Positions 42,671 to 58,723 are shown, counted from the stretch's first letter. The stretch: DNA of 64,000 nucleotides from Candidatus Levyibacteriota bacterium (GCA_963722305.1 CAVRKE010000001.1:181529-245528), one strand, 5' to 3'. A program made the numbers and translations. Notes: generated by a model from the letters alone, not told the origin.

Positions 42671-42829
42671 TTCTCCTTTTCCATGTACCCAGGGGACTTG
42701 TCTTCCTGCCCGTCTTTCCGCTGCTACTAGATTATTCCTCCCCGCAAAACCAATAAGTTCTTATGTTTACACATAACGTTTTGGGCAAGATAATTCGATT
42801 GGGGCAACAAATATAACCATTGGCTTTTG

Positions 42830-42903
42830 CACGCCTGAGAGGACTCGAACCCCCAACCCCTTCGTCCGAAGCGAAGTGCTCTATCCAATTGAGCTACAGG
42901 CGC
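42830..42903 (-). tRNA. tRNA-Arg (anticodon TCG)
   Basis: Hand-folded: acceptor GCGCCTG/CAGGCGT, D-arm GCTC-AATTGGATA-GAGC, anticodon stem CTTCG/CGAAG with loop CTTCGGA, T-loop TTCGAGT. The T-stem uses G-U pairs. Confidence 0.7.
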
Positions 42904-43058
42904 ATGCTGTTAGTATACTAAATTTATAATTGTTTATAAAGTTCGGTAGAAGATTTTTAAAAAGTAGGATATAATATGGTATCAATGATTTTGCAATTGC
43001 AAAGCTTGTGTGCGGGCCCGCCCGACACGCAAGACGAGCTTGTGAAGTCGTTGCGGGC

Positions 43059-43131
43059 GGGCCGCTAGCTCAACTGGCAGAGCAATTCCCTCTTAAGGAA
43101 TAGGTTCAGGGTTCGACTCCCTGGCGGCTCA
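43059..43131 (+). tRNA. tRNA-Lys (anticodon CTT)
   Basis: Hand-folded: acceptor GGGCCGC/GCGGCTC, D-arm GCTC-AACTGGCA-GAGC, anticodon stem ATTCC/GGAAT with loop CTCTTAA, T-arm CAGGG-TTCGACT-CCCTG. Confidence 0.8.
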
Positions 43132-43170
43132 CTAATTTTACCATCGTTAATTTAGCCTCGAATTGTAGCA

Positions 43171-43274: not shown

Positions 43275-44228
43275 ATGTTAAATCAATCACCTGAAGGATA
43301 TAGACAAGGAATTCCAATAGAAACACCTGGTTTTAGCGGAGATGCTTCTTCGCATACAGATGGTGTTGTAACCAGAATTAATCGTAGAGATTATATGCCT
43401 GGATTTTTAGAAACTACCCCAGTCACAATAATTCAACATAATCCTAATGGACAACTTGTTTTTAGCACAGAATATGATAAACGGCAGCTTACGCCCGAAG
43501 AAAATATGGCAATTGATGAACAACTTAAAGGTCCTGATACCATAGTTGAGATACTTCCTGACGGTGAAATTAGCATAGATCGCGGTTCAGCTCTTGAAAA
43601 TGGGTCACCAGCTTGGTTCACTCAGTGTAAAGAATTAGGTGTTAAAAGAGCCTTAAAAGAAGCAGCAGTTTTAGAAGCATTAACTGGATTCCAGAACGTA
43701 TTTTGGGGACCACATATTGGAAAAATAACTCCAATTATGGTCGTAGATCCTGATTCTGGTATTGAATATCAGACAGGCATCAGATTAAGTCATGATTTTC
43801 CTTGGACTACTACTGAAAAAAGAAAATTTAGAAGACCGAAAGCTATTCCGATTGTGGGCAAAAATGTTGTAGACATTACCTATAAAGCAACTGAAGCTAC
43901 TAAAGATTCAGGAGTTTTAGATACTGGTAACATATATTATCGTGAGAAATCAGCTGTAATAAGTATTCTTGCATTTCTTGATCCAAATGAACTTGAAGGT
44001 ATAGAAAATCCAACCACTTATAACCCTGATGATTTAAGATTTTTAAGTAAATTAGGAATTGGTTTAAATTTAGCTTTTGATCCGCAGCGTTTTAAACCGG
44101 ATAAAGATTTGACCTTAAAAATAGATGGAATTTTACAACGATTCGGAGATTTTACCGTATCACTGGGAACAAATGCTCCGCAACTAATCGAAAGGGGAAC
44201 AGAAAGAGCTAAAACATCTGTTAAGTAA
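43275..44228 (+). CDS. hypothetical protein
   Basis: 317-aa ORF with no recognisable motif, immediately upstream of the Fic gene. Confidence 0.3.
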   Translation: MLNQSPEGYRQGIPIETPGFSGDASSHTDGVVTRINRRDYMPGFLETTPVTIIQHNPNGQLVFSTEYDKRQLTPEENMAIDEQLKGPDTIVEILPDGEISIDRGSALENGSPAWFTQCKELGVKRALKEAAVLEALTGFQNVFWGPHIGKITPIMVVDPDSGIEYQTGIRLSHDFPWTTTEKRKFRRPKAIPIVGKNVVDITYKATEATKDSGVLDTGNIYYREKSAVISILAFLDPNELEGIENPTTYNPDDLRFLSKLGIGLNLAFDPQRFKPDKDLTLKIDGILQRFGDFTVSLGTNAPQLIERGTERAKTSVK

Positions 44229-44455
44229 TTAAAATTTTTGTAACTAACCTATAAAAAGCTTTTTAATTTAAGAAAATCAAACATTTCCAGAGCCACTGTT
44301 TCGTTTTCAATCCTTCTCATAATCTCCCGGCTTTTGTTTTGAGAGAAGATATTTAAACTTCCTTCCCAAAGGAATTGACTTTCTCATAGCTTTTTGCTAA
44401 ACTAGATTTAGACTAATTATTAGACCAATAGCTAGACTAATAATAGACTGATTTT

Positions 44456-45664
44456 ATGAACAAAATAGCTTCAAAACCATTCGCACACACTTTTTTATCA
44501 CAGTTTGTTCTTATACAAAAGCTGCTGCCTTTTTCTGATGATGAAATCAAAAATATAGATGCAGAACTGGCAGAGTATGAACAAGTATTCTTAAATCCGG
44601 ATATAGAGAAGAACTTGATTAGCAGAAATGAGCTTTTAGCTTCTTTTGCTATCTCTAAAGCGGAAAACTCAACCCTAACGCTTCAAGAGGCGCAAGATGT
44701 TTATAACTTACTGCTTACAAATGAAGAGTACACTTTTATTTCGGATAAACTTAAAAAAAAAGAAAAATTAACGCAGAAAGATTATGACAAGCTGGAGTTT
44801 TATAATATCGCCAAAACTTTTCGTAGTCTTAATGAAACACCGTTTAGTATCGATAATATCACGGCTGACGACATACGCAGACTCCACCAAAGCTTAAGCC
44901 TTGGATTAGATGTGTTTGAAAAGTATTTACTTGATTTTACTGTTTATAAATCCGGTAAGTTTCGCGATAATGATACGATTAGAGTTGGCAGCTATATACC
45001 GGCTCCTTTTGAAGCGATAGAGAAAGGAGTTGAAGAGCTTCTTTTGTATCTTAAAACCAACAAAACCATTACCGGAGTGGCTGTTTTTCATACTGGTCTT
45101 TATGCTCTTCATCCATTTAACAATGGGAATAAGCGAGTTTGTCGAATCTTAGAACACATTTTCTTTCGGGATCTTGGTTTAAATCAGAAAAATCTTTACA
45201 GTACTTCATATTATTACCATAAGCAAAAACAAAGGTATTATAAATACTTACTCTATTCCCTTGAGCGAAGAAATCTAAACCATTTTGTTTCCTTTGTCCA
45301 AGAAGCGCTTGTATTGTCTATGATTGGAGTTTTAAAATTAAGTCTTTCAGCAAAACGAAGTGAATTTTTAAGTAATCAAACAAGCGATGAGCAAATACGT
45401 CTTGTTTTAAAATCTTTGATTAAAAGACGTGAATTACAGTTTAAAAACCTGTTTGTAGCAGTCAGGGGTAAAATGGCCAGACAAACTTTTGTAAATCAGT
45501 TACAAAAAGCCACAGATGAAAAGATTATTCTAAAACGTGAAGCAGGACGAACTACCTATTATTGTCTTAATTTTAATACGCCCGAGGAAGAAGCACTGAA
45601 TAGATGGCTTACTTTTGCCAAGAAGAAACTATCCTACATACCCGATGAGATAAAATTGTTATAG
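44456..45664 (+). CDS. Fic/Doc-family protein with a variant active-site motif
   Basis: HPFNNGNKRVCR matches the Fic core HPFx(D/E)GNGRxxR except for N at the D/E position and K at the second G. The C-terminus looks like a winged helix. Confidence 0.7.
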   Translation: MNKIASKPFAHTFLSQFVLIQKLLPFSDDEIKNIDAELAEYEQVFLNPDIEKNLISRNELLASFAISKAENSTLTLQEAQDVYNLLLTNEEYTFISDKLKKKEKLTQKDYDKLEFYNIAKTFRSLNETPFSIDNITADDIRRLHQSLSLGLDVFEKYLLDFTVYKSGKFRDNDTIRVGSYIPAPFEAIEKGVEELLLYLKTNKTITGVAVFHTGLYALHPFNNGNKRVCRILEHIFFRDLGLNQKNLYSTSYYYHKQKQRYYKYLLYSLERRNLNHFVSFVQEALVLSMIGVLKLSLSAKRSEFLSNQTSDEQIRLVLKSLIKRRELQFKNLFVAVRGKMARQTFVNQLQKATDEKIILKREAGRTTYYCLNFNTPEEEALNRWLTFAKKKLSYIPDEIKLL

Positions 45665-45690
45665 TATATATCTCATATTCGTATTTTTTA

Positions 45691-45802
45691 GGGTTCATTT
45701 TGCCTCCTTTTCATGATATACTAAGCCTAGTTCAAGTAATTTAAGATACGTTTTTGTGAGACTTTCAAATAGGGGTTCCAGGCTGGAACCATATAGCTCA
45801 CT
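45691..45802 (-). repeat. 111-bp repeat, copy 2 (inverted copy of 22435-22545), oriented to fire antisense into the 3' end of the Fic gene
   Basis: The reverse complement is about 95% identical to copy 1 and includes the palindrome GGTTCCAGNCTGGAACC, the promoter hexamers, GGAGG and ATGAACCC. The downstream minus-strand ORF is only 13 codons. Confidence 0.85.
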
Positions 45803-45807
45803 ATTTT

Positions 45808-46050
45808 ATGAAGCAAAAGTTTGACAAGGCAACACAAGTTCTACTTCCAACCCTAACTGCCACCGGATTTTTAATCACCAGTCTCAAACGGCCGGACATT
45901 GGGTTGACTGTTAGTCTTGTTTCACAAATATTCTGGATGTATACCAGTTGGCAAGCCTGGAAAAAAGCCGGACAAATTGGAATATTTATCTCCTCCATAA
46001 TCGTTACGGTCATTTTACTCTTCGGGGTTATTAACTACTGGTTCCTCTAA
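45808..46050 (+). CDS. hypothetical small membrane protein
   Basis: 80 aa with two predicted TM helices. It starts 6 nt after repeat copy 2. Confidence 0.25.
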   Translation: MKQKFDKATQVLLPTLTATGFLITSLKRPDIGLTVSLVSQIFWMYTSWQAWKKAGQIGIFISSIIVTVILLFGVINYWFL

Positions 46051-46062
46051 AAATCACTAAGG

Positions 46063-46917
46063 TTAGGCAATTTTATTTAGGTCAATTTTAATATCCGTAG
46101 CGGGATAAAATAAACATTGCCTTGCCACAGCGTTTGCAAACTTTCCTGCCTCTTTTAAATTTCCAGTTTTCTTATATTTATAAATGAATGCGGCGCTAAA
46201 AATCTCCCCTGAACCAACCGAATCAATTACCTTATTCTCCGGAACCGGAATTGTCGGCAACATAATTTCTTTGCCACCCTTAAAAGCCATTGCTCCTTTT
46301 TCTCCAAGCGTTACAATCGGAATTACATCTGTATCCAGTGACCATTTTTTTGCCTGGGCAAGCATTGTTGAAGAATCACGCTGAGAAACAATTACAATAT
46401 CCAACAAAGGCAGTATTCCTTTTGCTTCTACAAATTTCCTGACTAAAACATTATTCTTGGAATCAAATTTTCTGTAAAACCCTTGCGGAAGAATAACTGT
46501 TAAAGCTCCCTTCTTTAAATTTGCAACAACTGATTTAATATATTCTTTATTATAAATCGGTAGCAGGGGAGCAAAAAAAACAATGTCAGTCTGGCGTAAA
46601 ATAGCTATCATAGAGCTGTCTAGCTCGACTGAGAAAGCTTTGTCCCGGTTGTAAGCTTTCTGTGTCCTAACGCCGGGCTTGGAAACATTTTCGTAAACTA
46701 ACGTTTTTTCGGTATTTGGTTGAGGAGGAAAAATATTAAAGTCTGCTACGTATTGAACAAAATCCGCTCCGTAAGAGGAAATGACATTTACATCGCAATC
46801 ACTAAATTGTTTAAAAACTTTATTTAAAAATATAGCCGGACTTCCAGCCGAAATGTAAGCGGAATGTTCCGAAACGTTCTTATCGATACAAACCGTGGTA
46901 ATAATGCAAATATTCAC
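46063..46917 (-). CDS. PfkB-family carbohydrate kinase
   Basis: C-terminal anion-hole/ATP motif (VGSGEIFSAAF) in a ribokinase-like fold. 284 aa. Confidence 0.55.
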   Translation of the reverse strand: MNICIITTVCIDKNVSEHSAYISAGSPAIFLNKVFKQFSDCDVNVISSYGADFVQYVADFNIFPPQPNTEKTLVYENVSKPGVRTQKAYNRDKAFSVELDSSMIAILRQTDIVFFAPLLPIYNKEYIKSVVANLKKGALTVILPQGFYRKFDSKNNVLVRKFVEAKGILPLLDIVIVSQRDSSTMLAQAKKWSLDTDVIPIVTLGEKGAMAFKGGKEIMLPTIPVPENKVIDSVGSGEIFSAAFIYKYKKTGNLKEAGKFANAVARQCLFYPATDIKIDLNKIA

Positions 46918-47027
46918 TTAAACATTATAACAAACTAATTATTATCCTACATCGAACATCTCGACACCCCAAAACGTTCGGACTTCCCCTATTTACATCG
47001 ATTACATTATTTTAGTAGTATAGTTAT

Positions 47028-48092
47028 GTGGGGAAAATAAAAAACTTTTCTTCCAGGCTGAAAAAAATAATCCTCGAACATAAAAGGATTTCAATCGTTG
47101 TCTTTATAGTTTTACTGCTAATCGGATTCGTTGTTTGGCCAAAGGGGTCAAAACAAGTCCTCACGGAAGTAGCGAGCAAGCAGGACGTGATTAAAATGGT
47201 CTCCGTAACGGGGAACGTCGACGCTCAAAAATCTGTCAATCTAACCTTCCAAACTCCCGGAACTTTGGCGTATTTGGGGGTTAAAACCGGAGACAGCGTC
47301 AAAGCTTACCAAACTATTGCCACGCTTGACCAAAGAACTGTGCAAAAAAACCTACAAATTGCTTTAGCTAATTATGCCGAACAAAGAAATAGTTTTGACA
47401 CAACCGAAGATACTTACGGAGACGCGACCTCTCAACAGGCCACCAGCAATCAAATGCGCAGGATTTTAGAGGATAATCAGTACGACCTAAATAAAGCTGT
47501 TGCATCGGTTGAGCTCCAGGACCTGGTCAGACAACAATCTATCTTAACCACTCCGATTGCCGGAATCGTCACCCGGGCAGATGCCGTAGCCGCCGGAGTA
47601 AATGTTACACCGGCCACCACTTTTACAATCACCGATCCCAGTTCCTTGGATTTTAAAATGGAGGTTGACGAGTCGGACATCGGCCAGGTAAAAGTAGGTC
47701 AGAATGTTAACGTCTCGCTTGACTCCTTTCCCAACCACACACTTAAATTAAAAGTCAACCAAATAGACTTTGTCAGCCATGTAACCTCTTCGGGAGGAAA
47801 TGCTTTTTACGTTGAGGCGATGCTTCCTCAACCAAACAACTACAGAGTGGGAATGTCAGGCAACGCCGATATTATTATTGACGCAAGACATAATGTGTTA
47901 AGTATACAATCTACCGATATCTTTGATGATAATTATGTCTATGTCAAAACGCCTAAGGGTTTTGACAAAAGAAAACTAAGCTTGGGACTGCAAAGTGACA
48001 CGCAAGCACAAGTTCTGTCAGGTCTGTCCGCAGGAGATATTGTGGCAATTGATCCAACTTCAGTTCCTCAAAACTTAGTAGCCAAAAATTAA
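47028..48092 (+). CDS. efflux transporter periplasmic adaptor subunit (HlyD/MacA-like)
   Basis: N-terminal TM anchor, biotin-lipoyl-like and beta-barrel segments, and coiled-coil hairpin. Sits in an operon with the ABC ATPase and permease. Confidence 0.65.
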   Translation: MGKIKNFSSRLKKIILEHKRISIVVFIVLLLIGFVVWPKGSKQVLTEVASKQDVIKMVSVTGNVDAQKSVNLTFQTPGTLAYLGVKTGDSVKAYQTIATLDQRTVQKNLQIALANYAEQRNSFDTTEDTYGDATSQQATSNQMRRILEDNQYDLNKAVASVELQDLVRQQSILTTPIAGIVTRADAVAAGVNVTPATTFTITDPSSLDFKMEVDESDIGQVKVGQNVNVSLDSFPNHTLKLKVNQIDFVSHVTSSGGNAFYVEAMLPQPNNYRVGMSGNADIIIDARHNVLSIQSTDIFDDNYVYVKTPKGFDKRKLSLGLQSDTQAQVLSGLSAGDIVAIDPTSVPQNLVAKN

Positions 48093-48097
48093 CCTGG

Positions 48098-48805
48098 ATG
48101 AAAACAACAGACAACATTATAAAAATGTCCAACATCACCAAAGTTTATCGCACCGAAGAGGTGGAAACCGTTGTTTTAAGGGATATTGATTTAGTCGTTA
48201 AAAAGGGCGATTTCTTGGGAATTACCGGAAGATCCGGCTCCGGTAAATCAACTCTGATGCACATTATCGGACTTTTGGATACGCCGACATCCGGAGAATA
48301 TATTTTAAACGGAACCGATGTCTCAAAATTGAATGAGGACGAACAGGCTTTTCAAAGAAATAAAGAAATCGGTTTTGTTTTTCAACAATTTAATTTGCTG
48401 CCAAAAATTAGTGCACTTGAAAATGTCATACTACCGGCAATTTATGCGGGAACCAATAATAAAGAAAGGACCGAAAAAGCCGATATGCTGTTAACAATGT
48501 TGGGCCTGGAAGAGCACATCCACAAAAGGCCAAACCAAATGTCCGGTGGACAACAGCAAAGAGTGGCCATTGCCAGAGCCTTAATGAATGACCCCGAACT
48601 CATCCTTGCGGATGAGCCCACCGGAAATTTGGATACAAAATCCGGTGACGATGTAATGAGAACCTTAAAACAATTAAATAAAGAGGGTAAAACAATTGTC
48701 CTAATTACCCACGAACACGATATTGCGGTTCAGGCAAAAAAATTAATTCAGCTTGAAGACGGACGATTAGTCCATACCGAAAAAAAGGAGGTGGGCAACG
48801 TCTAA
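48098..48805 (+). CDS. ABC transporter ATP-binding protein (MacB/LolD-like)
   Basis: Walker [10 protein letters not shown], signature [15 protein letters not shown] and Walker [12 protein letters not shown]. Confidence 0.85.
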
Positions 48806-49993
48806 ATGAACCTTGAGGAATTAATTACTCTGGCTATTAGAGCCATCTTTGCCAACAAGCTCAGAAGCTTTCTCACTACACTCGGGATCACCATCGGTGT
48901 TTTCGCGATTATCGTTTTGGTTTCGATCGGTTCGGGTTTACAAAGTTACATCACTAACGAAATCTCCTCGCTTGGGTCAAACGTTATTTTTGTTTTACCC
49001 GGCGGATCTGGCGGTTTGGGTGCGCTTTTAAGCAATAAACTTAACCTTCAGGATTGGAAAAATATTCAAAGAAAAACAGTATTAACGGCCAAATCTACAC
49101 CTGAAATAAGACAGCTCGATACTCTAAAATATAAAAACCTAAAATCAAAAGGTGCTTTTGTGTTTGGCGTTTCTTCAAGCTATCCGGAAGTTGTAGGAAC
49201 TACCAGTAAAATAGCCGAGGGTAATTTTTTTACCGCCGGGCAAGAACAATCGGGTTCGAATGTCGTAGTTATCGGACAGACGGTTTCCACCAAGCTTTTT
49301 AAAGGCCAAAATGCGATTGGGAAAAGAATTTTTGTCGGAAATAAACTTTATACAATTGTCGGCGTTTTTGCTAAGATCGGCTCTTTTGCCGGAGTGGATG
49401 CGGATAATATTGCCGCAATCCCGGTTGAAACGGCAAGTGTGCAATATGGCACAACTTCCGTGTCAAGAATTGACGTTGCCGCAGACAACCCCGATCTGGT
49501 CCAGATTGTGCTTCGGCAGATAAACCAAACACTATTAAAAAGGCTTACCTCGGATGACTATTCCATCCAAACCGCCGACTCTCTGGAATCTACCATCTCC
49601 AGTATTACCGGTATGCTGTCTCTTGCATTGGGAGGAATTGCGGCGATCTCTCTTCTGGTTGGAGGGATTGGTGTTGCCAACATAATGCTGGTTTCTGTTA
49701 CCGAAAGAACTAAGGAAATCGGTTTGAGAAAAGCCCTAGGCGCAAAGAGAAATGACATTTTGAAACAATTTTTGTTGGAAGCGGTAATGCTTTCGGTCAC
49801 CGGCGGAATTGTCGGAATAATTTTGGGGATGGGAGTATCAATTATTATTGCCATTTTGTTAGTTTCGACTGTCACATTATGGTCGGTGGTTTTAGCCTTT
49901 GGATTTTCGGTAGCAGTTGGTATAATATTCGGCATGGCACCGGCGATTAGGGCTTCCAAACTTAGCCCCATCGACGCCTTGAGATACGAGTGA
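48806..49993 (+). CDS. ABC transporter permease (MacB_PCD plus FtsX domain)
   Basis: 395 aa with one N-terminal TM helix, a periplasmic domain and a C-terminal FtsX-like three-TM bundle. Confidence 0.8.
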   Translation: MNLEELITLAIRAIFANKLRSFLTTLGITIGVFAIIVLVSIGSGLQSYITNEISSLGSNVIFVLPGGSGGLGALLSNKLNLQDWKNIQRKTVLTAKSTPEIRQLDTLKYKNLKSKGAFVFGVSSSYPEVVGTTSKIAEGNFFTAGQEQSGSNVVVIGQTVSTKLFKGQNAIGKRIFVGNKLYTIVGVFAKIGSFAGVDADNIAAIPVETASVQYGTTSVSRIDVAADNPDLVQIVLRQINQTLLKRLTSDDYSIQTADSLESTISSITGMLSLALGGIAAISLLVGGIGVANIMLVSVTERTKEIGLRKALGAKRNDILKQFLLEAVMLSVTGGIVGIILGMGVSIIIAILLVSTVTLWSVVLAFGFSVAVGIIFGMAPAIRASKLSPIDALRYE

Positions 49994-50044
49994 CAACGAA
50001 GTCCTGAGCGAAGTCGAAGGACGAATAGTATCGAAATACTGAGC

Positions 50045-53000
50045 ATGTCGAGGTACTTCGTTATGAGTAACAAATTTTTTTCAACCTTGAAATTTTTAAT
50101 CGGCTGGCCTTTGTCGATTATTGCCCTTCTATTTATTCTGAGAATTATTACTCCGAATATAAAAGTTGTTTTTGAAAATTTATCAAGAATCAATTTTGCA
50201 TATCTATGTTTTGCTTTATTGAGTTTTTTTACGTATTTTTTACTGCGCAGTTTTTTATGGAAGAGCATCGTTGACCGGAAAGGCAATAAACTAAACTTTA
50301 AAAAAATTTCTTACCTTTGGGCGTTTTCCGAATTAAAAAGGTATATTCCCGGAAATGTTTGGTCAATATTGGCCAGAGGGACGTCGTCTTTAGAAGCCGG
50401 CTTAGACAAAAAAGCGATTGCCAATGCATTAATTATTGAGGTTGAACTAATAATCATTGCCGGTTATATCCTTTCTCTTCCGTTTATGCTTTATTTCTCT
50501 TGGGGAACTGTTTTTAACATCCTTTTTTTGCTGCTTGGAATCATTCTAATTTTATTGTTTATTTTTGGCAGCATGATTAAGATCGGTAAGCTGTCTATTC
50601 TTTTTCCCGGAATCAATTACTCCGAAAATGCAAAAATATTCCTAATTTCACTGGTAACTTTTTTTATGTTTGGTCTCGGCACATTTTTTGCCATCGTTTC
50701 TTTATTCTACTTCGACCCGAATCTTATCTGGATTATTGTCAGTCTTTCCGTTTTCTCCCTTTTGGCCGGATACGTATCATTAATAACGCCGATGGGGCTG
50801 GGCGTTAGGGAAGGAGTAATGACTTTTTATCTTTCGCGGTTTATTCTAACATCCTCAGCCGGTCTGGTTTCAATTTTTTCCAGAATAGTACTAATTATTT
50901 CCGAAATTATTTTTTTGCTGTTCGTTTTTTGCTGGAATCAAATTAAAAACAAGCTTCTAACCAACATTGAAGATTTTATCTCAACACACAAGTACGCACT
51001 TTGTTTGGGATTATTTATTCTTGCTTATATCCTTTACTTTACTGCAGCCAGCTTTTTAAGATATGACAATTTTTTTACCGGACGGTTTGACCTTGGAAAC
51101 ATGGACCAAACTGTCTGGAATACAATTCACGGAAGAATTTTTCAAACAACAGACGCAAACGGTACTGCGATTATTTCAAGACTCGCTTATCACGCCGATT
51201 TTATTTTAATTCTTATCGCACCACTATACCTTATTTGGTCAAACCCGGGAATGCTACTGCTATTACAAACCGTCGTCTTGGGATTGGGCGCGGTGTTTAT
51301 TTATTTTATTGCCACTAATCTCTTGAAGAACAAAAATCTGGCTTTGGTTTTCTCCGCCATTTATCTTTTAAATCCGTCTCTACAGTTTACCAATCTTTAT
51401 GATTTTCATGCGGTAGTTTTGGGCACAACATTGCTACTTGGAACTTTTTATTTTTTTCTCAAAAAAAACTATCTATTTTTTATTTTGTTTGCCGTTTTAT
51501 CAGGATTAACTAAAGAAGATATTTGGGCAATAATTGCAATCTTCGGTTTGGCAATAATTACACGCGCAATCATAGAAAATAAATTAAGCATAAACTTATC
51601 TAAAAAACGATTGTTGGAAGTTCTGCTTGGACTAACTGTTTTTCTATTATCAAGTTTTATTTTTTACCTTTTAATCTGGATTATAATCCCTTATTTTAAC
51701 GGCGCACAACACTTTGCAATTTCTTATTTTTCAGATTACGGTGGTACCGCTTCCGATATTTCTAAAAATATCGTTTTTATGCCTCTAAAAACTCTCTCTC
51801 TATTATTCACTGTACAAAATATTCATTATCTCTTTCAATTGTTTTTGCCATTTGGATTTATTTCTCTTATTTCTCCGCTTTACTTGATTTTTGCCGTACC
51901 GGATTTACTGATTAATCTACTGGGCACAAATTTGGGATTTCACGAAATTTATTACCAATATACTGCCGCGATAACACCGTTTATCGCAATCTCTTCTATT
52001 TATGCTGCCTTTTTTTTGAAAAAACATTTTTCGCTAATCAACAATCGGATAATAATTACTTACCTTATTATTGCGGCTTTAATTTCTGTCTATCTTTATG
52101 GGCCGCTGCCGGGAACTTTGCATGCAAATGTAGACATGTTTAAAAAGCAACTGGTTAACAGTAAGATTATTGATAATTTTATTTCAACTATTCCAACCAG
52201 GTTTAGCATTGCGGCTACCAATAATTTGGGCTCTCATCTTTCCCGAAGACAAAAAATTTATACCATTCCTGTCGGCATTGACCAAGCCGACGTGGTGCTG
52301 TTTTTGCTAAACGACCCATTCGCCCAGCCATCGCTTCAGGCTCAAAAAAACATGGCTATGCAAATGAAGAATGATAAAAGATATATCCAGGTTTTTAAAG
52401 ACGGTGATTTCATTGCTTTCGAAAAAAGAACTCTTTACACCCAGGCCAATGCAAAGCCCAAAAAAGGACTGGTTAATCTTTTCCCGTATTCCATCACTGC
52501 TCTTTCCAACCGCAGCTACCAAAAAAGTGACATTACCGTTGAACGACAGGCCCATGGTGACGGAAATTTCCAGAGTTTTGTAATTTCTTTTATTTCCGAC
52601 GGCTTAAAAGAATATGCTTTAATGAATATACCGAATTCTCCAATGCCGGCAGGCGGATTTCCGGTGTTAATTCTTGACCACGGCTATATTCAGCCCAGTG
52701 CTTATGACACCGTCAATTCTTATAAATCCGAATCCGATTACTTTGCCAATCAAGGCTTTTTAGTTTTGAAGCCTGACTACAGAGGCAACGGTAATTCGGA
52801 AAACACCGACCAAGCCCTGATGCGTTTTGCTTATCCGATAGATGTCTTAAACTTATTGTCATCTGTCGCAAATATTTCAGCTGCCAATCCTAATCAAATT
52901 TTCTTCTGGAGTCATTCCATGGGTGGGGAAGTAACACTTGAGGTTTTGGAAGCCGCAGCCAAAAATAAAGATCTGGCTGGAAAAATAAAAGGCGCAATCT

Positions 53001-53380
53001 TTTGGGCACCGGTTACGGACCCGGTAAAATGGTTTTCGAAAAGCCATCTGCCGGCTCTCCCCGAAGCAATTATCACACCCTATCCTTATACGCAAACTTT
53101 TCAAATCTTAGGTACTCCAGACAAAAACCCGCAGCTTTGGCAATCACTTTCGCCCTTAAACTATCTAAATAGTATTAACGTTCCAATCCTTCTGCAACAC
53201 GGAACCGGGGATACAACCGTTCCTTATTCATGGTCGGTTGAGTTAAACCAAGATTTACTGACACTAAAGAAAACAATCACTTTTATCTCTTATCCTAACG
53301 ACACGCATAACCTACCGCTGTTTTGGTCTAAAGCGGTTAACGACGACTTAAATTTTTTAAATCACCTTTTAGGTAAATAA
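50045..53380 (+). CDS. 1111-aa fusion: flippase-like (UPF0104/LPG-synthase TM-like) membrane domain, DUF2079 membrane domain and a C-terminal alpha/beta-hydrolase (S9/esterase-like)
   Basis: The N-terminal ~300 aa are polytopic. The middle has the DUF2079 hallmark RYDNFFTGRFDLGNMDQTVWN. The C-terminus has the nucleophile elbow SHSMGG and the LLQHGTGDTTVP acid/His region. Confidence 0.55.
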   Translation: MSRYFVMSNKFFSTLKFLIGWPLSIIALLFILRIITPNIKVVFENLSRINFAYLCFALLSFFTYFLLRSFLWKSIVDRKGNKLNFKKISYLWAFSELKRYIPGNVWSILARGTSSLEAGLDKKAIANALIIEVELIIIAGYILSLPFMLYFSWGTVFNILFLLLGIILILLFIFGSMIKIGKLSILFPGINYSENAKIFLISLVTFFMFGLGTFFAIVSLFYFDPNLIWIIVSLSVFSLLAGYVSLITPMGLGVREGVMTFYLSRFILTSSAGLVSIFSRIVLIISEIIFLLFVFCWNQIKNKLLTNIEDFISTHKYALCLGLFILAYILYFTAASFLRYDNFFTGRFDLGNMDQTVWNTIHGRIFQTTDANGTAIISRLAYHADFILILIAPLYLIWSNPGMLLLLQTVVLGLGAVFIYFIATNLLKNKNLALVFSAIYLLNPSLQFTNLYDFHAVVLGTTLLLGTFYFFLKKNYLFFILFAVLSGLTKEDIWAIIAIFGLAIITRAIIENKLSINLSKKRLLEVLLGLTVFLLSSFIFYLLIWIIIPYFNGAQHFAISYFSDYGGTASDISKNIVFMPLKTLSLLFTVQNIHYLFQLFLPFGFISLISPLYLIFAVPDLLINLLGTNLGFHEIYYQYTAAITPFIAISSIYAAFFLKKHFSLINNRIIITYLIIAALISVYLYGPLPGTLHANVDMFKKQLVNSKIIDNFISTIPTRFSIAATNNLGSHLSRRQKIYTIPVGIDQADVVLFLLNDPFAQPSLQAQKNMAMQMKNDKRYIQVFKDGDFIAFEKRTLYTQANAKPKKGLVNLFPYSITALSNRSYQKSDITVERQAHGDGNFQSFVISFISDGLKEYALMNIPNSPMPAGGFPVLILDHGYIQPSAYDTVNSYKSESDYFANQGFLVLKPDYRGNGNSENTDQALMRFAYPIDVLNLLSSVANISAANPNQIFFWSHSMGGEVTLEVLEAAAKNKDLAGKIKGAIFWAPVTDPVKWFSKSHLPALPEAIITPYPYTQTFQILGTPDKNPQLWQSLSPLNYLNSINVPILLQHGTGDTTVPYSWSVELNQDLLTLKKTITFISYPNDTHNLPLFWSKAVNDDLNFLNHLLGK

Positions 53381-53427
53381 ACTGAACATTCATTGCAAAA
53401 ACCATTGTTAAGTTTTAACATTAAATT

Positions 53428-54234
53428 ATGGTTAACGTATTAAAGGCTAACGGCAGTGTCGAACCATTCAGCGAGGAAAAACTGCGGGATTCTATCGGGC
53501 GTGCCGGCATTCCGACTAGCGTCCAAGAACAAGTTGTTTCCCAGGTCAAAGCAAAAGTTTACGAAAATATTCCCACTTCCGAAGTTTATGAGCATGTCAC
53601 TAAATCTTTGGAAAGCGAACCTCACCTGACAAAATTTCGCTACTTTTTAAAGCGGGCGCTGATGGAACTTGGTCCAACCGGCTATCCATTTGAAGATTTA
53701 GTTGCCGAAATTTTGCAGTCAAAAAGCTATACTACACAAGTCCGCTCTACTCTGATGGGCAAATGTGTCAACCATGAAATTGACGTTATCGCCCAAAAAG
53801 AGACTGAAAAACTGCTGGTCGAAGCAAAATTTCATAACGCCCCGGGCATCCACACCGATTTACACGTTTCTTTATATACCAACGCCAGATTTGAGGACCT
53901 TCGGGAAAAACATGCGTTCACTAAAGCCTGGCTCTTTACCAATACAAAAATTACCCCGGACGCACTTTCCTATGCACTTTGCGTCGGCATGCAGGTGACC
54001 GGCTGGAACTACCCGCAAAACGAAGGACTCAGAGATTTAATTGGAAAGGAGAGACTCTATCCAATCACTATTTTGGCCTCGCTTTCCCAAAGCGAAAAGC
54101 AGACGCTTTTGGAAAACCACATTGTTTTGGTAAACCAAGTTTTGAAAAACGAACAGATGCTTGATGTCTTGGGAATTCCGCCCGATAAAAAAACAAAAAT
54201 AGCTGAAGAAGCTAAGCTAATTCTAAATGAATAA
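53428..54234 (+). CDS. ATP-cone domain fused to an Mrr-like (PD-(D/E)xK) restriction-endonuclease-fold domain
   Basis: N-terminal ATP-cone (VLKANGSVEPFSEEKLRDSI). Mrr_cat-like core FEDLVAEIL...GKCVNHEIDVIA...LLVEAKFH (D...E-x-K). Confidence 0.45.
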   Translation: MVNVLKANGSVEPFSEEKLRDSIGRAGIPTSVQEQVVSQVKAKVYENIPTSEVYEHVTKSLESEPHLTKFRYFLKRALMELGPTGYPFEDLVAEILQSKSYTTQVRSTLMGKCVNHEIDVIAQKETEKLLVEAKFHNAPGIHTDLHVSLYTNARFEDLREKHAFTKAWLFTNTKITPDALSYALCVGMQVTGWNYPQNEGLRDLIGKERLYPITILASLSQSEKQTLLENHIVLVNQVLKNEQMLDVLGIPPDKKTKIAEEAKLILNE

Positions 54235-54535
54235 AAAAATTATACTTGCCCTAATTATACCTCCACTCGTTGTACTTATTTGGAATATTATTTACTTTAG
54301 CCTACAAGATCAACCAGCTATAAATGGATATTTACCTTCGATTAGCAATCATGTAGGTTTAATAATCATAATACTTTCACTTTTGTTTGACTCTCTTGCA
54401 TGCTTAAATAGTAAAAATGCAGTTAGTAATTTCTTTAAATTAGCGTTCGCATCAATGGCTGGTTTTGTAATAACGATGTTTATTTTTTTATTTCTTTTGC
54501 TACTTTATTATCCTAAGGGACAAGCTCTTTTTTAA
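54227..54535 (+). CDS. hypothetical small membrane protein
   Basis: 102 aa with three hydrophobic helices and no motif. Confidence 0.25.
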   Translation: MNKKIILALIIPPLVVLIWNIIYFSLQDQPAINGYLPSISNHVGLIIIILSLLFDSLACLNSKNAVSNFFKLAFASMAGFVITMFIFLFLLLLYYPKGQALF

Positions 54536-55782
54536 GCAAATTTTGCAGTAGTTTCTTTGGCTAATTTTGACCGTTCGAATTTGTCCGCCATAAAACCGTT
54601 CGGGACAGTCTTGAGGCTTGGGGCATTGAGCAAAAATCCGTTTCTAATAGTGTGGTCGCCGAACTTTTCGTTAATTTTATCCCTGACTTTTTTAAGCTTC
54701 TCCTGTTTATCGTCTTGTTCAAATAAAGACATGGTCAGATTTTTATTATCGTTAAGATTTCCGACGGAAATCGAAATTTGCCTAACCATTGAATGCCAGT
54801 TCCACTCATCCATCAACTGCTTACAAAGTTTGAATATCTCTGCACCGCTGTCAAAGTATTCTTGAACAGTTTTCCTGCCGTGTCCCAACCTTTCCCCACC
54901 AAGATAGAGATGAACGGTTCTGCCTTTCTTGTTTAATCTTCTAAGCTTGATTGAGATTTCCTCACAAAGCTCATAAATGTTTTGCAAGATCAAACGTTGG
55001 TCGTAAGTATTGGCAGGTAAACAATAACTCCGGCCGACCGATTTTGTTTCAGAGAGAAAATAGTAGGGGATAACCGGTGAATCATCCTGTCCCTGACCGA
55101 GATTGTAAAGAAAGTGACCTTCAACGTCCTTAAATTCACGCATGAGAACGCTTAACGAGGCTTTATGCAGCTCCATCGGCGTATGAATTCTTAAATTGTT
55201 TAATCTATTTTCAATCCTTCTGCCGATACCGCAAAAATCCGTCAGTTTGGTTTTGGCGTAAATCTCTAAAATATTTTCCGGCGTTATCTCAAGTATTCCA
55301 TTGGGTTTATTGATGCCGGATCCCAATTTGGCTAAGAGCTTGTTATACGAAATCCCAACCGAGACAGTGATGTATTCGCCGATTTCGTTTTTAATACGCT
55401 CTCTTATTTTTTCTATTAATGAATATTTTCCGCCGAATAGTCCCTCAGTTACAGTAATATCCATAAACACTTCGTCCAAAGAAAATAATTCGACATACGG
55501 TGAATAATCTTTGCAAATATCCAAAAACTTTTGGGTAATTTCCCAATACTGCTCAAAATGCGCCGGCACAAAAATCATGTTGGGAACAATTTTTAAGGCA
55601 TCAAAAGTCCGGCTCGGGGATTTTACTCCCAAGCGCTTTGCTTCACGACTGGCGGCAATAACCGCTGTCCGGCCGTTTTGCGCGGTTACACCGATCGGTT
55701 TACCACGCAGTTTAGGATTGAATTGTTGCTCGCAGGAAGCAAAATATGAGTCAAAATCGATGTGAAGAATTACCTTTTTCAT
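54532..55782 (-). CDS. dinB: Y-family DNA polymerase IV
   Basis: IMPB/MucB/SamB N-terminus (VILHIDFDSYFASCEQ) with palm, fingers and little-finger layout. The start is taken at MKKVILHID. Confidence 0.85.
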   Translation of the reverse strand: MKKVILHIDFDSYFASCEQQFNPKLRGKPIGVTAQNGRTAVIAASREAKRLGVKSPSRTFDALKIVPNMIFVPAHFEQYWEITQKFLDICKDYSPYVELFSLDEVFMDITVTEGLFGGKYSLIEKIRERIKNEIGEYITVSVGISYNKLLAKLGSGINKPNGILEITPENILEIYAKTKLTDFCGIGRRIENRLNNLRIHTPMELHKASLSVLMREFKDVEGHFLYNLGQGQDDSPVIPYYFLSETKSVGRSYCLPANTYDQRLILQNIYELCEEISIKLRRLNKKGRTVHLYLGGERLGHGRKTVQEYFDSGAEIFKLCKQLMDEWNWHSMVRQISISVGNLNDNKNLTMSLFEQDDKQEKLKKVRDKINEKFGDHTIRNGFLLNAPSLKTVPNGFMADKFERSKLAKETTAKFA

Positions 55783-55861
55783 AGGCATTATCTCTAGAAT
55801 AGTAGAAAAATAGTCGTAAATCAATAGAACAAAATACGACAATCGATGTCAGTTTTACAGC

Positions 55862-56809
55862 CTATAGTCCATAATAGGCCAAAGAAGTATTACCAACGCG
55901 GGTACGATGCAAAGTCATAATAAAACTGTCACACTGCCATTGACCGGGAATTTCGGTAAATGCCCCCAGGTAACCTTTTCGTTGCAAAGTTTGAATGGCG
56001 TTGCTATTAAATGAACCGTAAGGGTAGGTAAAAATGTTCACCGTTTGTCCTGTGTATTGTTGGATTTGGTTTTGCGCCGTAACGATTTCGCTTTCTATTT
56101 TAGCCTGAGAGCCATTCGTGATTGGCCAGTGGGACCAGGTATGGTTAGTGAGATAAACTCCGTTATTCTTTAGATCATTGACCTGCCCCCAGGTAAGCAT
56201 GTCGGAATTTGCGCCGACCAAACCCGAAGCCAGCATTAAATTTGCCTTAAAACCATACTTTTTTAATATGGGCAAGGCGTAAATATCATTATCGGCATAT
56301 CCGTCATCCATGGTAATTACAATCGGTTTTCCCGGCAGTCCCGAATGAGTAAGCAGTGCATTAACTAATTCGTTCGCCCAAACCGGAGTATAGCCGTGGG
56401 AAACCAGGTAGGCCATTTGCTGGTCAAAAATTCCGTTGTCCACCGTTAATGATGTCTGACCTAAGCTTTTAGCCGCTGCTTCCGGCTGGATATGGTGATA
56501 CATTAAAACCGGCACATGCAAGCAATAACCGACTAAAGGAGCAGGGGTTGGAGTATTGGTAATTGTCTGGTAAGGCGTAATCAAATTGACATTTTTTATC
56601 GCATCTTTTTTTAAGGAAACGTCCGCAGGCAATTGATAAGTTACTTCCTCGCTGTTGCCTTTTCCCCAAAAAAAATATCCCAAACAAATCAGAAGCAAAA
56701 CTCCAATTAGGAATATCAATGTCAAAAGTCCGCTGGGTTGTTGCTTAACATGCCGTTTTTTGATCACTTTTGACCGGCGACTTACTGTTTTACGCTTAAC
56801 TTTTACCAT
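55862..56809 (-). CDS. polysaccharide deacetylase (NodB homology domain), membrane-anchored
   Basis: N-terminal TM helix followed by the NodB motifs ITMDDGY and YGFKANL. Confidence 0.7.
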   Translation of the reverse strand: MVKVKRKTVSRRSKVIKKRHVKQQPSGLLTLIFLIGVLLLICLGYFFWGKGNSEEVTYQLPADVSLKKDAIKNVNLITPYQTITNTPTPAPLVGYCLHVPVLMYHHIQPEAAAKSLGQTSLTVDNGIFDQQMAYLVSHGYTPVWANELVNALLTHSGLPGKPIVITMDDGYADNDIYALPILKKYGFKANLMLASGLVGANSDMLTWGQVNDLKNNGVYLTNHTWSHWPITNGSQAKIESEIVTAQNQIQQYTGQTVNIFTYPYGSFNSNAIQTLQRKGYLGAFTEIPGQWQCDSFIMTLHRTRVGNTSLAYYGL

Positions 56810-56893
56810 TTTTTAAGTATACCATTAAAAATAAATTTAATGCAATTGTGCTATAATTCATAAACAGCTTCCAAAACAGGGCTGTTTTTTATT

Positions 56894-58723
56894 ATGGACC
56901 AATTCACGTCCGAAAAAATCAGGAACATTGCGGTAATTGCCCATGTTGATCATGGCAAAACTACTTTAGTTGATTTTATGCTCAAACAATCGCACACCTT
57001 TCGGGAAAATGAAGCCGAAATGCAACAAACTACTATTTTGGACTCCAATCCTCTGGAGCGGGAAAGAGGCATCACCATTTTGGCCAAAAATACCGCCATT
57101 TATTATAAAAATTATAAAATCAATATTATTGATACTCCGGGACACGCCGATTTCTCCGGTGAGGTGGAAAGAACCTTAAACATGGCCGACGGTGCACTCT
57201 TAATAATTGACGCCCAGGAAGGACCGATGCCGCAAACCAAATTTGTTTTAAAAAAAGCCTTGGAACTGGGACTGAAAATAATTGTCGTCATTAATAAAAT
57301 CGACAAACAACTGGCTAACGTCAAAACCACTCTTGAAAGGACAAACGACTTATTTTTAGAATTGGCAACGCATCATGAGCAACTGGAATTTCCTATTTTT
57401 TATGCTATCGGCAGAGAGGGGAAAGCGGCTCTCTCACTGGAAGAATTACAGCAAAGCCAAAATCTGGAACCGATTCTAAACTCCATCATTGAATTTATCC
57501 CGGCACCCAAAGTGGAGAAGGGAAGTTTTCAAATGCTGGTTTCCAATCTTGACTACGACGTCCATAAAGGCAAACATGCCATTGGCAGAATCAGAAGGGG
57601 CAATATTAAAAAAGGGCAGAACTTAATTTTAATTGACGCTTTCGGTAAAAAAATTGCGGGTAAAGCGGAAAGTATCCGTTTAAGCCACGGGTTAAAAAAG
57701 ATTGAAGTTGATGAGGCTTTTGCCGGAGACATTGTTGACATCACCGGTTTACCAAACGTTGCCATTGGCGACACCATTACGGACTCACAAAGTCCTGAAC
57801 CACTGCCAAGGATAATGCTTGAAGAACCAACTATTAAAATTGCCATCTCGGCCAACACCTCACCCTTTGCCGGTAGGGAAGGAAGATTTACCAACTCTCG
57901 GCAAATACTGGAAAGACTGACACATGAATTGGAAACAAACATCAGTTTGAAACTGGCCAAAGAAGGAGAAAAAATGGTTGTCTCGGGCAGAGGCGAGCTG
58001 CATTTATCAATTCTGATTGAAACTTTAAGGCGCGAAGGATACGAATTTCAGGTTGAAAAACCGGAAGTGATTACAAAGTCCGTAGATGGAGTCGTAATGG
58101 AACCGGTGGAAATTGCCATGATTGATGTTTCCGATCAGTTTTTGGGGATAATTACCGCCGAAATGGGCGCCAGAAAGGGAAAAATGCTTAACATGCAATC
58201 CGACGGCAAAGGCAATACCCGGTTTGAATTTAAGATTCCTTCCAAAAATTTGTTTGGCATCAGAAACGATTTACTAACCAACACCAAAGGTACGGCCATC
58301 GTCAATACTATTTTTTTCGATTACGAACCGATGAGCCCAACCATTCCGCAAATTAGGAACGGTGTTTTAATCGCTTCGGAGGCGGGTTCGGCATTAAAAT
58401 ATGGCTTGAACAACGCCCAAGGCCGGGGAATTACTTTTATTGAGCCGGGAACCATGGTTTACGAAGGGATGATTGTCGGCGAAAATACCCGGCAGGACGA
58501 CATTGAAATTAACGTCACCAAAGAAAAAAAACAAACCAATATGCGCGCCTCAACGTCAGATGTCACGCTTGGCGCTTTAACTCCGGCCACTGTTTTGAGC
58601 CTTGAGGAATGTATCGACTTTCTGGAAGATGATGAATTACTGGAAGTGACACCCAAAAGTTTAAGGCTGCGCAAAAAATTGTTAACCCATCTTGATCGAG
58701 TAAGGAAAACGCGAAGTTTATAA
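56894..58723 (+). CDS. typA: translational GTPase TypA/BipA
   Basis: 609 aa with G-domain motifs AHVDHGKTT and DTPGHADF, an EF-G-like domain layout and a BipA C-terminus. Confidence 0.95.
   Translation: MDQFTSEKIRNIAVIAHVDHGKTTLVDFMLKQSHTFRENEAEMQQTTILDSNPLERERGITILAKNTAIYYKNYKINIIDTPGHADFSGEVERTLNMADGALLIIDAQEGPMPQTKFVLKKALELGLKIIVVINKIDKQLANVKTTLERTNDLFLELATHHEQLEFPIFYAIGREGKAALSLEELQQSQNLEPILNSIIEFIPAPKVEKGSFQMLVSNLDYDVHKGKHAIGRIRRGNIKKGQNLILIDAFGKKIAGKAESIRLSHGLKKIEVDEAFAGDIVDITGLPNVAIGDTITDSQSPEPLPRIMLEEPTIKIAISANTSPFAGREGRFTNSRQILERLTHELETNISLKLAKEGEKMVVSGRGELHLSILIETLRREGYEFQVEKPEVITKSVDGVVMEPVEIAMIDVSDQFLGIITAEMGARKGKMLNMQSDGKGNTRFEFKIPSKNLFGIRNDLLTNTKGTAIVNTIFFDYEPMSPTIPQIRNGVLIASEAGSALKYGLNNAQGRGITFIEPGTMVYEGMIVGENTRQDDIEINVTKEKKQTNMRASTSDVTLGALTPATVLSLEECIDFLEDDELLEVTPKSLRLRKKLLTHLDRVRKTRSL

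Follow-up and report, generated by a model that had tools for sequence, protein, structure and literature searches.

Transmembrane glycosylation systems of the multi-component kind contain a GT2 enzyme (such as GtrB or CsbB), a small flippase (such as GtrA or GtcA) and a GT-C enzyme (such as YfhO or a serotype-specific Gtr). Three-component glycosylation of this kind is established for lipoteichoic acid (PMC7389260, PMC8035078). Flippase domains of the PplT (UPF0104) type occur fused to many enzymes (bioRxiv 10.1101/2022.03.11.483950). In archaea the UPF0104 genes of arCOG00899 adjoin those of PMT/STT3-like arCOG00563 and an AglD-like GT2, an arrangement read as flipping for glycosylation, and UPF0104 flippases also adjoin deacetylases both there (PMC5898192) and in the gpgSDF and hexSDF operons (PMC12713373). 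We describe here a single open reading frame (ORF) at positions 50045..53380 on the plus strand of a 64,000-nucleotide (nt) stretch of DNA from Candidatus Levyibacteriota bacterium (GCA_963722305.1 CAVRKE010000001.1:181529-245528), the whole of which is called the window below. It joins a flippase-like module, a DUF2079 module with a predicted GT-C fold and an alpha/beta-hydrolase, and this fusion represents a conserved, syntenic gene family of Levyibacteria, being neither an artefact nor unique. The reading that we slightly favour is that the protein would be a transmembrane glycosylation device of the cell envelope made as one polypeptide.

As in the GT2/GtrA/GT-C systems, a lipid-linked sugar would be flipped and then used by an outer-face GT-C enzyme on an envelope molecule (PMC7389260, PMC8035078). 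However, the likeness is one of logic and the locus is not a canonical member: the flippase is an MprF-type PplT domain rather than a GtrA-family protein and is fused to the GT-C module, the GT-C family concerned (DUF2079) is uncharacterised, an esterase is attached, and a GT2 gene was found neither in the window nor in the annotated related loci L001-L007. The archaeal arCOG00899 case likewise links a UPF0104 flippase at the genomic level with an enzyme of GT-C type, but there the coupling is a gene neighbourhood with a PMT-family GT-C, whereas here it is a covalent fusion with DUF2079 and an esterase in a bacterium of the Candidate Phyla Radiation (CPR). Identity of arCOG00563 with DUF2079 was considered and rejected, as the former is called PMT family in Makarova et al. 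2015 (PMC5898192). The gpgSDF and hexSDF operons also combine glycosyl transfer, hydrolytic trimming and a UPF0104 flippase to give a surface-exposed glycolipid (PMC12713373). They do so with a cytoplasmic GT-B/GT4 enzyme using a nucleotide sugar and with a deacetylase, whereas the protein described here would use a GT-C enzyme at the outer face with a lipid-linked donor, and an alpha/beta-hydrolase. Flipping first and transferring outside is a principle already established elsewhere, so the fusion adds an informative variation on it and no principle of its own. What is new is the placing of DUF2079 in GT-C on the strength of a modelled fold, the recognition of its N-terminal partner as MprF Subdomain 1 with the gate kept, and a survey of where in Levyibacteria the modules are fused, split or lost, together with a link between the esterase and MacAB genes.

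Three modules in one open frame

The ORF runs uninterrupted through 1111 codons to its stop. A missed frameshift or stop, which the earlier note on this DNA had named as what might split its 1111-amino acid (aa) ORF into separate genes, was looked for; the frame is open throughout and the fusion is no artefact. Translation probably begins at the ATG at 50063 (Met7), giving a product of 1105 aa, because the sequence GAGG lies at 50050-50053, 9 nt 5' of this ATG, because the N-termini of relatives open with MSKNFLSTLKF and match a start at Met7, and because NCBI, ENA and Logan have an entry for exactly this 1105-aa product (608-kb public contig). The 1111-aa version has no exact record in the same public collections. 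Thus the single frame claimed earlier was found as described, with its start moved. The three modules claimed for it were recovered by Pfam, by the alignments of relatives and by Foldseek, and the two motifs pointed out, RFDLGNMDQ and SHSMG, are both present. Mapping of the domains with hidden Markov models (HMMs; Pfam) placed DUF2079 and the hydrolase above their cut-offs but left LPG_synthase_TM at 26.7 bits, below its cut-off of 33.4.

The DUF2079 module, residues 316-800 (50990..52444, plus strand), has about 11 transmembrane (TM) helices (residues 316-685) followed by a small soluble alpha/beta subdomain (686-800). The earlier note had made its reading depend on HMM support for this family, and such support was found: Pfam DUF2079 (PF09852) matches residues 339-782 with 209.4 bits against a cut-off of 28.2 (E 1.5e-61, profile positions 1-450 of 459). 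An AlphaFold2 (AF2) model of residues 1-800 has a pLDDT of 89 and a pTM of 0.88. The module is predicted to have the polytopic fold common to the solved GT-C enzymes and Foldseek concurs independently, so that on its modelled fold DUF2079 is a GT-C glycosyltransferase whose activity is predicted. The structural matches to the module, with their scores, were ALG12 (17.1), Pmt2 (17.0), Pmt4 (16.8), PglB (16.8), ArnT (16.4), ALG9 (16.3), STT3B (15.3), GPI mannosyltransferase I (15.1), AglB (14.6), AftB (14.2), DPY19 (12.6), ALG3 (12.6), PimE (10.8), AftA (10.6), AftD (10.3), ALG6 (10.1) and EmbA (8.3). The module differs from the solved GT-C enzymes (ALG12/ALG9, PMT1/2/4, PglB/STT3/AglB, ArnT, AftA/B/D, PimE) in that their chains share 9-14% sequence identity with it and the DUF2079 profile matched no solved chain among the PDB sequences even at E<=10.

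GT-C enzymes bear a catalytic Asp or Glu in their first extracytoplasmic loop. The motif RFDLGNMDQ (residues 347-355, 51083..51109, plus strand) lies in the predicted first extracytoplasmic loop after TM1, 6-13 residues past the helix 316-341, and its Asp349 and Asp354 are invariant in 77 of 77 sequences; they are candidate catalytic or metal-binding acids. Further invariant polar residues of the module are His383, Asp385, Asp453, His455, Lys490, Glu491, His556, Asn726 and Arg735, and DUF2079 is the best conserved part of the protein. The family is large, with 8,891 clusters at 50% identity (E<=1e-3), and occurs as stand-alone proteins of ~480 aa, as N-terminally extended proteins of ~790 aa and as others with C-terminal extensions. 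When ten other DUF2079 proteins were examined with Pfam, one carried the same esterase module and nine gave no match outside DUF2079. The present assignment would give this family a GT-C fold and named candidate catalytic residues.

The N-terminal module, residues 7-300 (50063..50944, plus strand), comprises six long TM helices plus a pair of half-membrane hairpins and resembles PplT/UPF0104 proteins and the flippase Subdomain 1 of MprF. Subdomain 1 of MprF consists of TM1, 2, 3a/3b, 4-6, 7a/7b and 8 with two half-membrane hairpins, and the central gate of RtMprF is formed by Arg304 salt-bridged to Glu280 (PMC8131360). In the AF2 model, helices 85-100/104-117 are the equivalent of TM3a/3b, 225-244/254-263 of TM7a/7b and 269-299 of TM8, and the TM1-8 fold with its two inverted half-membrane hairpins is present. 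Pfam LPG_synthase_TM (PF03706) matches residues 27-285, nearly the whole profile, with 26.7 bits for the full protein and 30.8 for the isolated domain. This sub-threshold match is made firm by the relatives, since PF03706 was the sole family matched by 19 of 24 aligned N-modules (best E 3.1e-16), and by Foldseek, which matched the module to MprF with a probability of 1.00. When the profile of the N-module was compared with the PDB sequences, MprF alone was matched (E=3).

The tip of the first hairpin, equivalent to TM3a/3b, is ELKRYIPGNVW (residues 96-106, 50330..50362, plus strand) with R99, P102 and G103 invariant in alignments A1, A2 and A4. That of the second is TPMGLGVRE (residues 248-256), which with the stretch on to Arg280 occupies 50786..50884 on the plus strand and which the HMM alignment to MprF 9w50 sets on P-GGVGVFE of MprF. 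Glu256 and Arg280 are conserved in 77 of 77 sequences, with the same 24-residue spacing as E280 and R304 of RtMprF, and judged by this alignment they correspond to the central gate pair. The residue before the gate Arg is Tyr in MprF and Ser279 here. No match was found to MprF Subdomain 2 (TM9-14) or to its C-terminal tandem-GNAT synthase, and DUF2079 follows straight after residue 300. Because both of these parts are absent the protein is a PplT-domain protein and not an MprF; among PplT proteins it differs in that a DUF2079 partner is not one of the architectures named in bioRxiv 10.1101/2022.03.11.483950, and from the MprF/PplT/UPF0104/YbhN proteins at large it is set apart by the missing parts and by the Ser beside the gate Arg. 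MprF of P. aeruginosa (PaMprF) is reported to act as a promiscuous scramblase that needs no energy and accepts lipids of very large size (PMC11980842), so by analogy the flipping of a bulky lipid-linked sugar by the N-module is plausible. A Lys-rich amphipathic linker helix in the AF2 model (residues 303-314, 50951..50986, plus strand) separates the flippase from the GT-C module, and it is exactly at this junction that split versions of the protein end one gene and start the next.

The C-terminal module, residues 813-1111 (52481..53377, plus strand), is an esterase-like alpha/beta-hydrolase predicted to lie outside the membrane. Pfam Peptidase_S9 (PF00326) matches residues 892-1109 with 51.3 bits against a cut-off of 22.6, and Hydrolase_4 and BD-FAE also exceed their Pfam cut-offs, giving a hydrolase region of residues ~870-1109. 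The Ser-Asp-His triad is present in the order found in the S9 family. The nucleophile elbow SHSMG (residues 956-960, 52910..52924, plus strand) holds Ser958 (52916-52918), conserved in 71 of 77 sequences; Asp1056 (53210-53212, plus strand) and His1088 (53306-53308, plus strand) are conserved in all 77, and the HG oxyanion motif His879-Gly880 (52679-52684, plus strand) in 68-70. Neither sequence nor structure comparison found a beta-propeller or other peptide-gating domain of the S9 type anywhere in the protein. Given that the propeller is absent, the module is a generic alpha/beta-hydrolase most like esterases; of the earlier label, esterase/peptidase S9-like, the hydrolase with its triad stands and the S9 peptidase was an overstatement. 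The whole protein matched only small carboxyl and carbohydrate esterases among the PDB sequences (E~1e-6), and the structural neighbours of the module include monoacylglycerol lipases. NCBIfam gave only sub-threshold matches, to the UilS lactonase and the phospholipase BipL (E 1.3e-4), which were dropped as a guide to function, being far under the cut-off. A second small alpha/beta-hydrolase-like ORF of 290 aa is found elsewhere in the window, at 27706-28578 (plus strand), with a sub-threshold Pfam match (Hydrolase_4, 23 bits).

Nineteen stand-alone homologs of the esterase, 289-375 aa long, 30-57% identical and coming from other Patescibacteria and Anaerolineae, were inspected. All but one, apparently truncated at its N-terminus, carry a hydrophobic N-terminal segment or a lipoprotein-type signal. 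As these are export signals, the esterase family would be extracytoplasmic and the C-module probably faces outward.

The topology was derived from the AF2 helices and from loop charges across the family, a Kyte-Doolittle scan having been discarded because of overlapping segments, and it leans on the positive-inside rule, on the termini of split proteins, on the MprF and GT-C precedents and on the signal anchors of the stand-alone esterases. Split DUF2079 proteins begin MINFIKKHKY and split flippases finish KIKNK, termini which by the positive-inside rule would be cytoplasmic. The six long helices and two hairpins of the N-module lead from an N-in start to a C-in end, in agreement with the Lys-rich linker 300-316, and the K/R-rich loops 428-431, 473-475, 512-522 and 659-668 agree with a DUF2079 model of 11 TM helices, N-in and C-out. 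The RFDLGNMDQ loop, the 686-800 subdomain and the hydrolase would thus lie outside, as in solved GT-C enzymes.

Fusion, fission and the neighbouring MacAB genes

A search of 5.8 billion proteins gave 732 relatives. The architecture was read from the top 120, which comprise three-module proteins of ~1100 aa and proteins of ~800 aa starting exactly at the DUF2079 boundary; the identity of three-module relatives to the query reaches down to 43%. Classified by architecture (P flippase, D DUF2079, H hydrolase), 185 family proteins divide into 85 PDH, 67 PD-, 32 -DH and a single -D-. Public labels for them are only 'DUF2079 domain-containing protein' or 'alpha/beta fold hydrolase'.

Relatives are present in at least 484 species genomes, taking one genome per species, and arrangements were counted in the best 80 species loci, nearly all of which are from Levyibacteriota or Patescibacteria. 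Among these 80 the commonest form sampled is a flippase-DUF2079 fusion without hydrolase (54 loci). All three modules are fused in 9 loci, or 11 if two ambiguous calls are counted, the flippase gene stands apart from a DUF2079-hydrolase gene in 4, and DUF2079 is alone, with or without a separate upstream flippase gene, in 11. The statement in the earlier note that the three modules are usually separate proteins does not apply in Levyibacteria. It had also suggested that split versions be sought in relatives, and they exist. In loci L001-L004 the N-module is a separate gene of 311-312 aa with a 4-nt ATGA overlap with the DUF2079-hydrolase gene, the identity to the query being 39-44% over residues 9-303 and 68-71% over the remainder. 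In locus L064 a hydrolase homolog (39% identity) is its own gene immediately upstream of the flippase-DUF2079 gene. On these counts the flippase and DUF2079 appear as the core unit and the hydrolase as an accessory. The modules are likely to be functionally coupled because they are found fused, split with an overlap or neighbouring at one syntenic locus. A similarity dendrogram was drawn for the DUF2079 module, constructed like the other dendrograms by unweighted pair group averaging (UPGMA) on identities and so not a phylogeny. The architectures are intermingled on it, and the hydrolase therefore seems to have been lost or gained, and the flippase to have been split off, more than once.

Many of the loci come from metagenome-assembled genomes (MAGs) recorded under other names: L013, L020, L026, L029, L037 and others are titled 'uncultured Gammaproteobacteria bacterium', and single locus records are titled Methylomirabilota, Lysobacterales or Pacearchaeota. 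What these loci encode, and their synteny, make wrong labels or contamination of the bins the probable explanation.

The genes directly upstream of the ORF, all on the plus strand, encode by Pfam an HlyD-like adaptor (HlyD_D23/HlyD_3, 47028-48092), an ABC ATPase (ABC_tran, 48098-48805) and a MacB_PCD plus FtsX permease (48806-49993), which are the three parts of a MacAB-type tripartite exporter. The position immediately downstream of a MacAB-like exporter, reported in the earlier note, is therefore correct. The 51-nt gap between the MacB gene and the ORF (49994-50044) contains a short inverted repeat, GTCCT...AGGAC. A promoter and terminator scan around the gene gave results at chance level, with no convincing terminator in this gap. 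Relatives show an 8-nt overlap between the MacB gene and the one that follows it. Of 21 loci bearing a hydrolase, 17 have MacAB genes directly upstream, as against 7 of 58 loci without one (Fisher p 1.6e-8, uncorrected for phylogeny), and MacAB-positive loci are found in several distinct parts of the dendrogram. MacAB genes are no fixed companion of the family, but their presence goes with that of the esterase module.

The gene order membrane fusion protein-ABC-MacB, (flippase)-DUF2079-(hydrolase), ATP-cone/Mrr, DinB (minus strand), and further on CE4 deacetylase (minus strand) and BipA, is kept among relatives at 51-71% identity. A relative at 45% identity lacks MacAB and keeps the downstream gene order, and much of the conserved order may be general collinearity. 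The ATP-cone/Mrr gene, 48 nt downstream of the ORF at 53428-54234 (plus strand), encodes a 268-aa protein with an ATP-cone, Mrr_cat (a restriction-endonuclease fold) and an AF1548-like C-terminal part, and in 53 of 76 related loci a homolog is the next gene after that for DUF2079. The CE4 polysaccharide deacetylase gene lies three genes downstream at 55862-56809 (minus strand), with a similar position in relatives. By analogy with the deacetylases beside UPF0104 flippases, a functional link to the fusion gene is possible.

Proposed mechanism and its alternatives

The computed results are the open frame with its three folds, the conservation of catalytic and gate residues, the pattern of fusion, fission and neighbours and the statistical link between esterase and MacAB. 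Starting from these, we infer a donor, an acceptor, a topology and a chemical role for the esterase as follows. The PplT module would move a lipid-linked substrate into the outer leaflet. This substrate would most likely be a polyprenyl-phosphate sugar, supplied by a cytoplasmic GT2 enzyme encoded elsewhere. DUF2079 would then take the flipped lipid-linked sugar as donor at its outer-face Asp349/Asp354 loop and transfer it to an extracytoplasmic membrane lipid, wall polymer or surface protein. Finally the outer Ser-Asp-His hydrolase, tethered to the last helix, would trim this glycoconjugate. Its likeliest activity is that of an esterase on carbohydrate or lipid (by de-O-acylation, or by release of the product or carrier), probably in concert with the adjacent MacAB-type pump, which would be able to expel outer-leaflet material. 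We consider this sequence of flip, transfer and trim somewhat likelier to be right than wrong, and our confidence in the exact role of the esterase is much lower than in the core mechanism. The earlier note had taken the fusion to indicate a coupled machine for modification and remodelling of lipids or glycans in the envelope, and every computational test run supports that view: the MprF fold and gate, the GT-C fold with its Asp residues, the intact triad and the export signals, and the syntenic fusion and fission.

Several observations weigh against this mechanism. Most relatives have no esterase and many have no MacAB, so neither can be essential to the core function. A GT2 polyprenyl-phosphate-sugar synthase was not found in the 64-kb window or in the annotated loci L001-L007. 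The flippase module of this particular sequence does not reach the PF03706 cut-off of 33.4 bits, and it is missing Subdomain 2, a contributor to the outer cavity of MprF. MprF-type domains are known to move phospholipids only and are not known to transport polyprenyl-phosphate sugars. The nearest structures to the esterase, at similar Z, are feruloyl and acetyl-xylan esterases, lipases and S9 peptidase domains. In the full-text literature searched, DUF2079, PF09852 and COG3463 appeared only in an unrelated study of membrane-protein motifs.

A bolder form of the flip, transfer and trim mechanism, which we find rather doubtful, is that the GT-C bundle replaces MprF's own Subdomain 2 as the partner on which Subdomain 1 docks, so that the outer cavity of the flippase might open straight into the GT-C donor site as a covalent flip-and-transfer channel for polyprenyl-phosphate sugars. 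If this were true, it would be the first evidence for PplT/UPF0104 domains as flippases of carrier-lipid sugars rather than phospholipids, and the hydrolase and MacAB would detach and expel the finished glycolipid or glycan in the esterase-bearing lineages of these wall-bound, lipid-auxotrophic symbionts. More generally, PplT/UPF0104 domains are nearly ubiquitous, and a conserved fusion to a GT-C enzyme argues that they flip lipid-linked sugar donors or the lipid acceptor. A conserved envelope enzyme also gives a way into the building of the CPR (Levyibacteria) surface, the gain and loss of its esterase tracking the MacAB pump.

Alternatively, with the core working as proposed above, the esterase could serve the housekeeping of the carrier lipid, cleaving unused polyprenyl-phosphate sugar or a dead-end intermediate outside and so freeing scarce carrier, as an outward analogue of UshA. 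UshA (YqjL) of B. subtilis is an alpha/beta-hydrolase that frees undecaprenyl phosphate from sugars linked to it (PMC11898649), and would share with our module a fold tied to polyprenyl-phosphate-sugar metabolism. The esterase is tethered beside a GT-C site that would itself be expected to bind such donors, and the dispensability of the esterase in many relatives suits a housekeeping accessory. However, UshA is soluble and cytoplasmic, whereas the C-module family bears export signals and would be tethered outside; the residues reported as functionally important in UshA are histidines (PMC11898649), and cleavage of a sugar phosphate would be unusual for a Ser-Asp-His esterase. We regard this explanation as unlikely.

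The MprF fold and gate pair of the N-module raise the possibility of phospholipid head-group homeostasis of the MprF type, in which the flippase exposes aminoacyl- or aminosugar-phosphatidylglycerol (PG), an outer hydrolase removes the modification and DUF2079 modifies a lipid head group rather than a polymer. Periplasmic aminoacyl-PG hydrolases with genes beside mprF carry out such a removal, and aminoacyl-PG hydrolases are known from Pseudomonas and Enterococcus. The lysyl-PG hydrolases AcvB and VirJ exist alongside MprF-type systems (PMC13135905), and UPF0104 flippases serve the glucosaminyl-PG and aminohexosyl-glycolipid operons gpgSDF and hexSDF (PMC12713373). The CE4 deacetylase gene three genes downstream could be counted in favour too, given its similar position in relatives, but it is on the opposite strand with unrelated genes between, in a region that is generally collinear. 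Moreover, Pfam detects an aminoacyl-PG synthase domain neither in the protein nor in the genes around it and gives no VirJ-type match for the hydrolase, and Ser279 stands where MprF has a Tyr before its gate Arg. This makes head-group homeostasis quite improbable in our judgement.

CPR bacteria generally have no lipid synthesis of their own, which could favour scavenging of lipids by a symbiont. The esterase would then be a (lyso)phospholipase or lipase acting on host or environmental lipids, the scramblase would carry the products into the membrane, MacAB would handle lipid traffic and DUF2079 would be mainly a scaffold. The co-occurrence of esterase and MacAB fits this, as do the monoacylglycerol lipases and lipases among the structural neighbours and, far under the cut-off, the NCBIfam match to BipL. 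A scaffold, however, is a misfit for the best conserved part of the protein with its invariant acidic and basic residues of GT-C type, and most relatives are flippase-DUF2079 proteins with no esterase at all, so scavenging is in our view very unlikely. Protein O-glycosylation, in which DUF2079 would modify secreted proteins in the manner of PMT or PglB while the S9-like module cuts the substrate peptide, is another very improbable explanation, as no beta-propeller or other S9 substrate-gating domain is present and the best PDB sequence matches are carboxyl and carbohydrate esterases. Lastly, although the flippase gene of close relatives overlaps the next by only 4 nt, such that a single-base error could fuse them, an assembly or annotation artefact has a negligible chance and was rejected on the open frame, on the identical 1105-aa product on a 608-kb contig and on the same three-module frame in 85 independent relatives down to 43% identity.

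Other features of the window

With a GC content of 33-44% where it was profiled (44000-58000), and with its housekeeping genes, the window has the look of a small CPR genome. DedA-family proteins have been implicated in the recycling of polyprenyl-phosphate carriers, which is relevant to any GT-C pathway, and a VTT/DedA-domain membrane protein is encoded at 5787-6410 (minus strand). A 532-aa ORF at 41072-42670 (minus strand) has no Pfam family and is separated from the MacAB genes by two tRNA genes and three ORFs. In locus L003 a 551-aa protein with a weak PMT_2 (GT-C) match adjoins the MacAB genes upstream, on the opposite strand. The 532-aa ORF might be another divergent GT-C enzyme.

A 402-aa Fic/DOC-domain protein is encoded at 44456-45664 (plus strand), between a tRNA cluster at 42829-43132 and the MacAB genes. 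Since the gene is absent at the matching position in L001, L003, L005 and L007, this stretch may be a lineage-specific insertion. An IS30-like transposase ORF at 18062-19087 (plus strand), with HTH_38 and a sub-threshold match to the rve integrase core, marks a mobile element amid the housekeeping genes.

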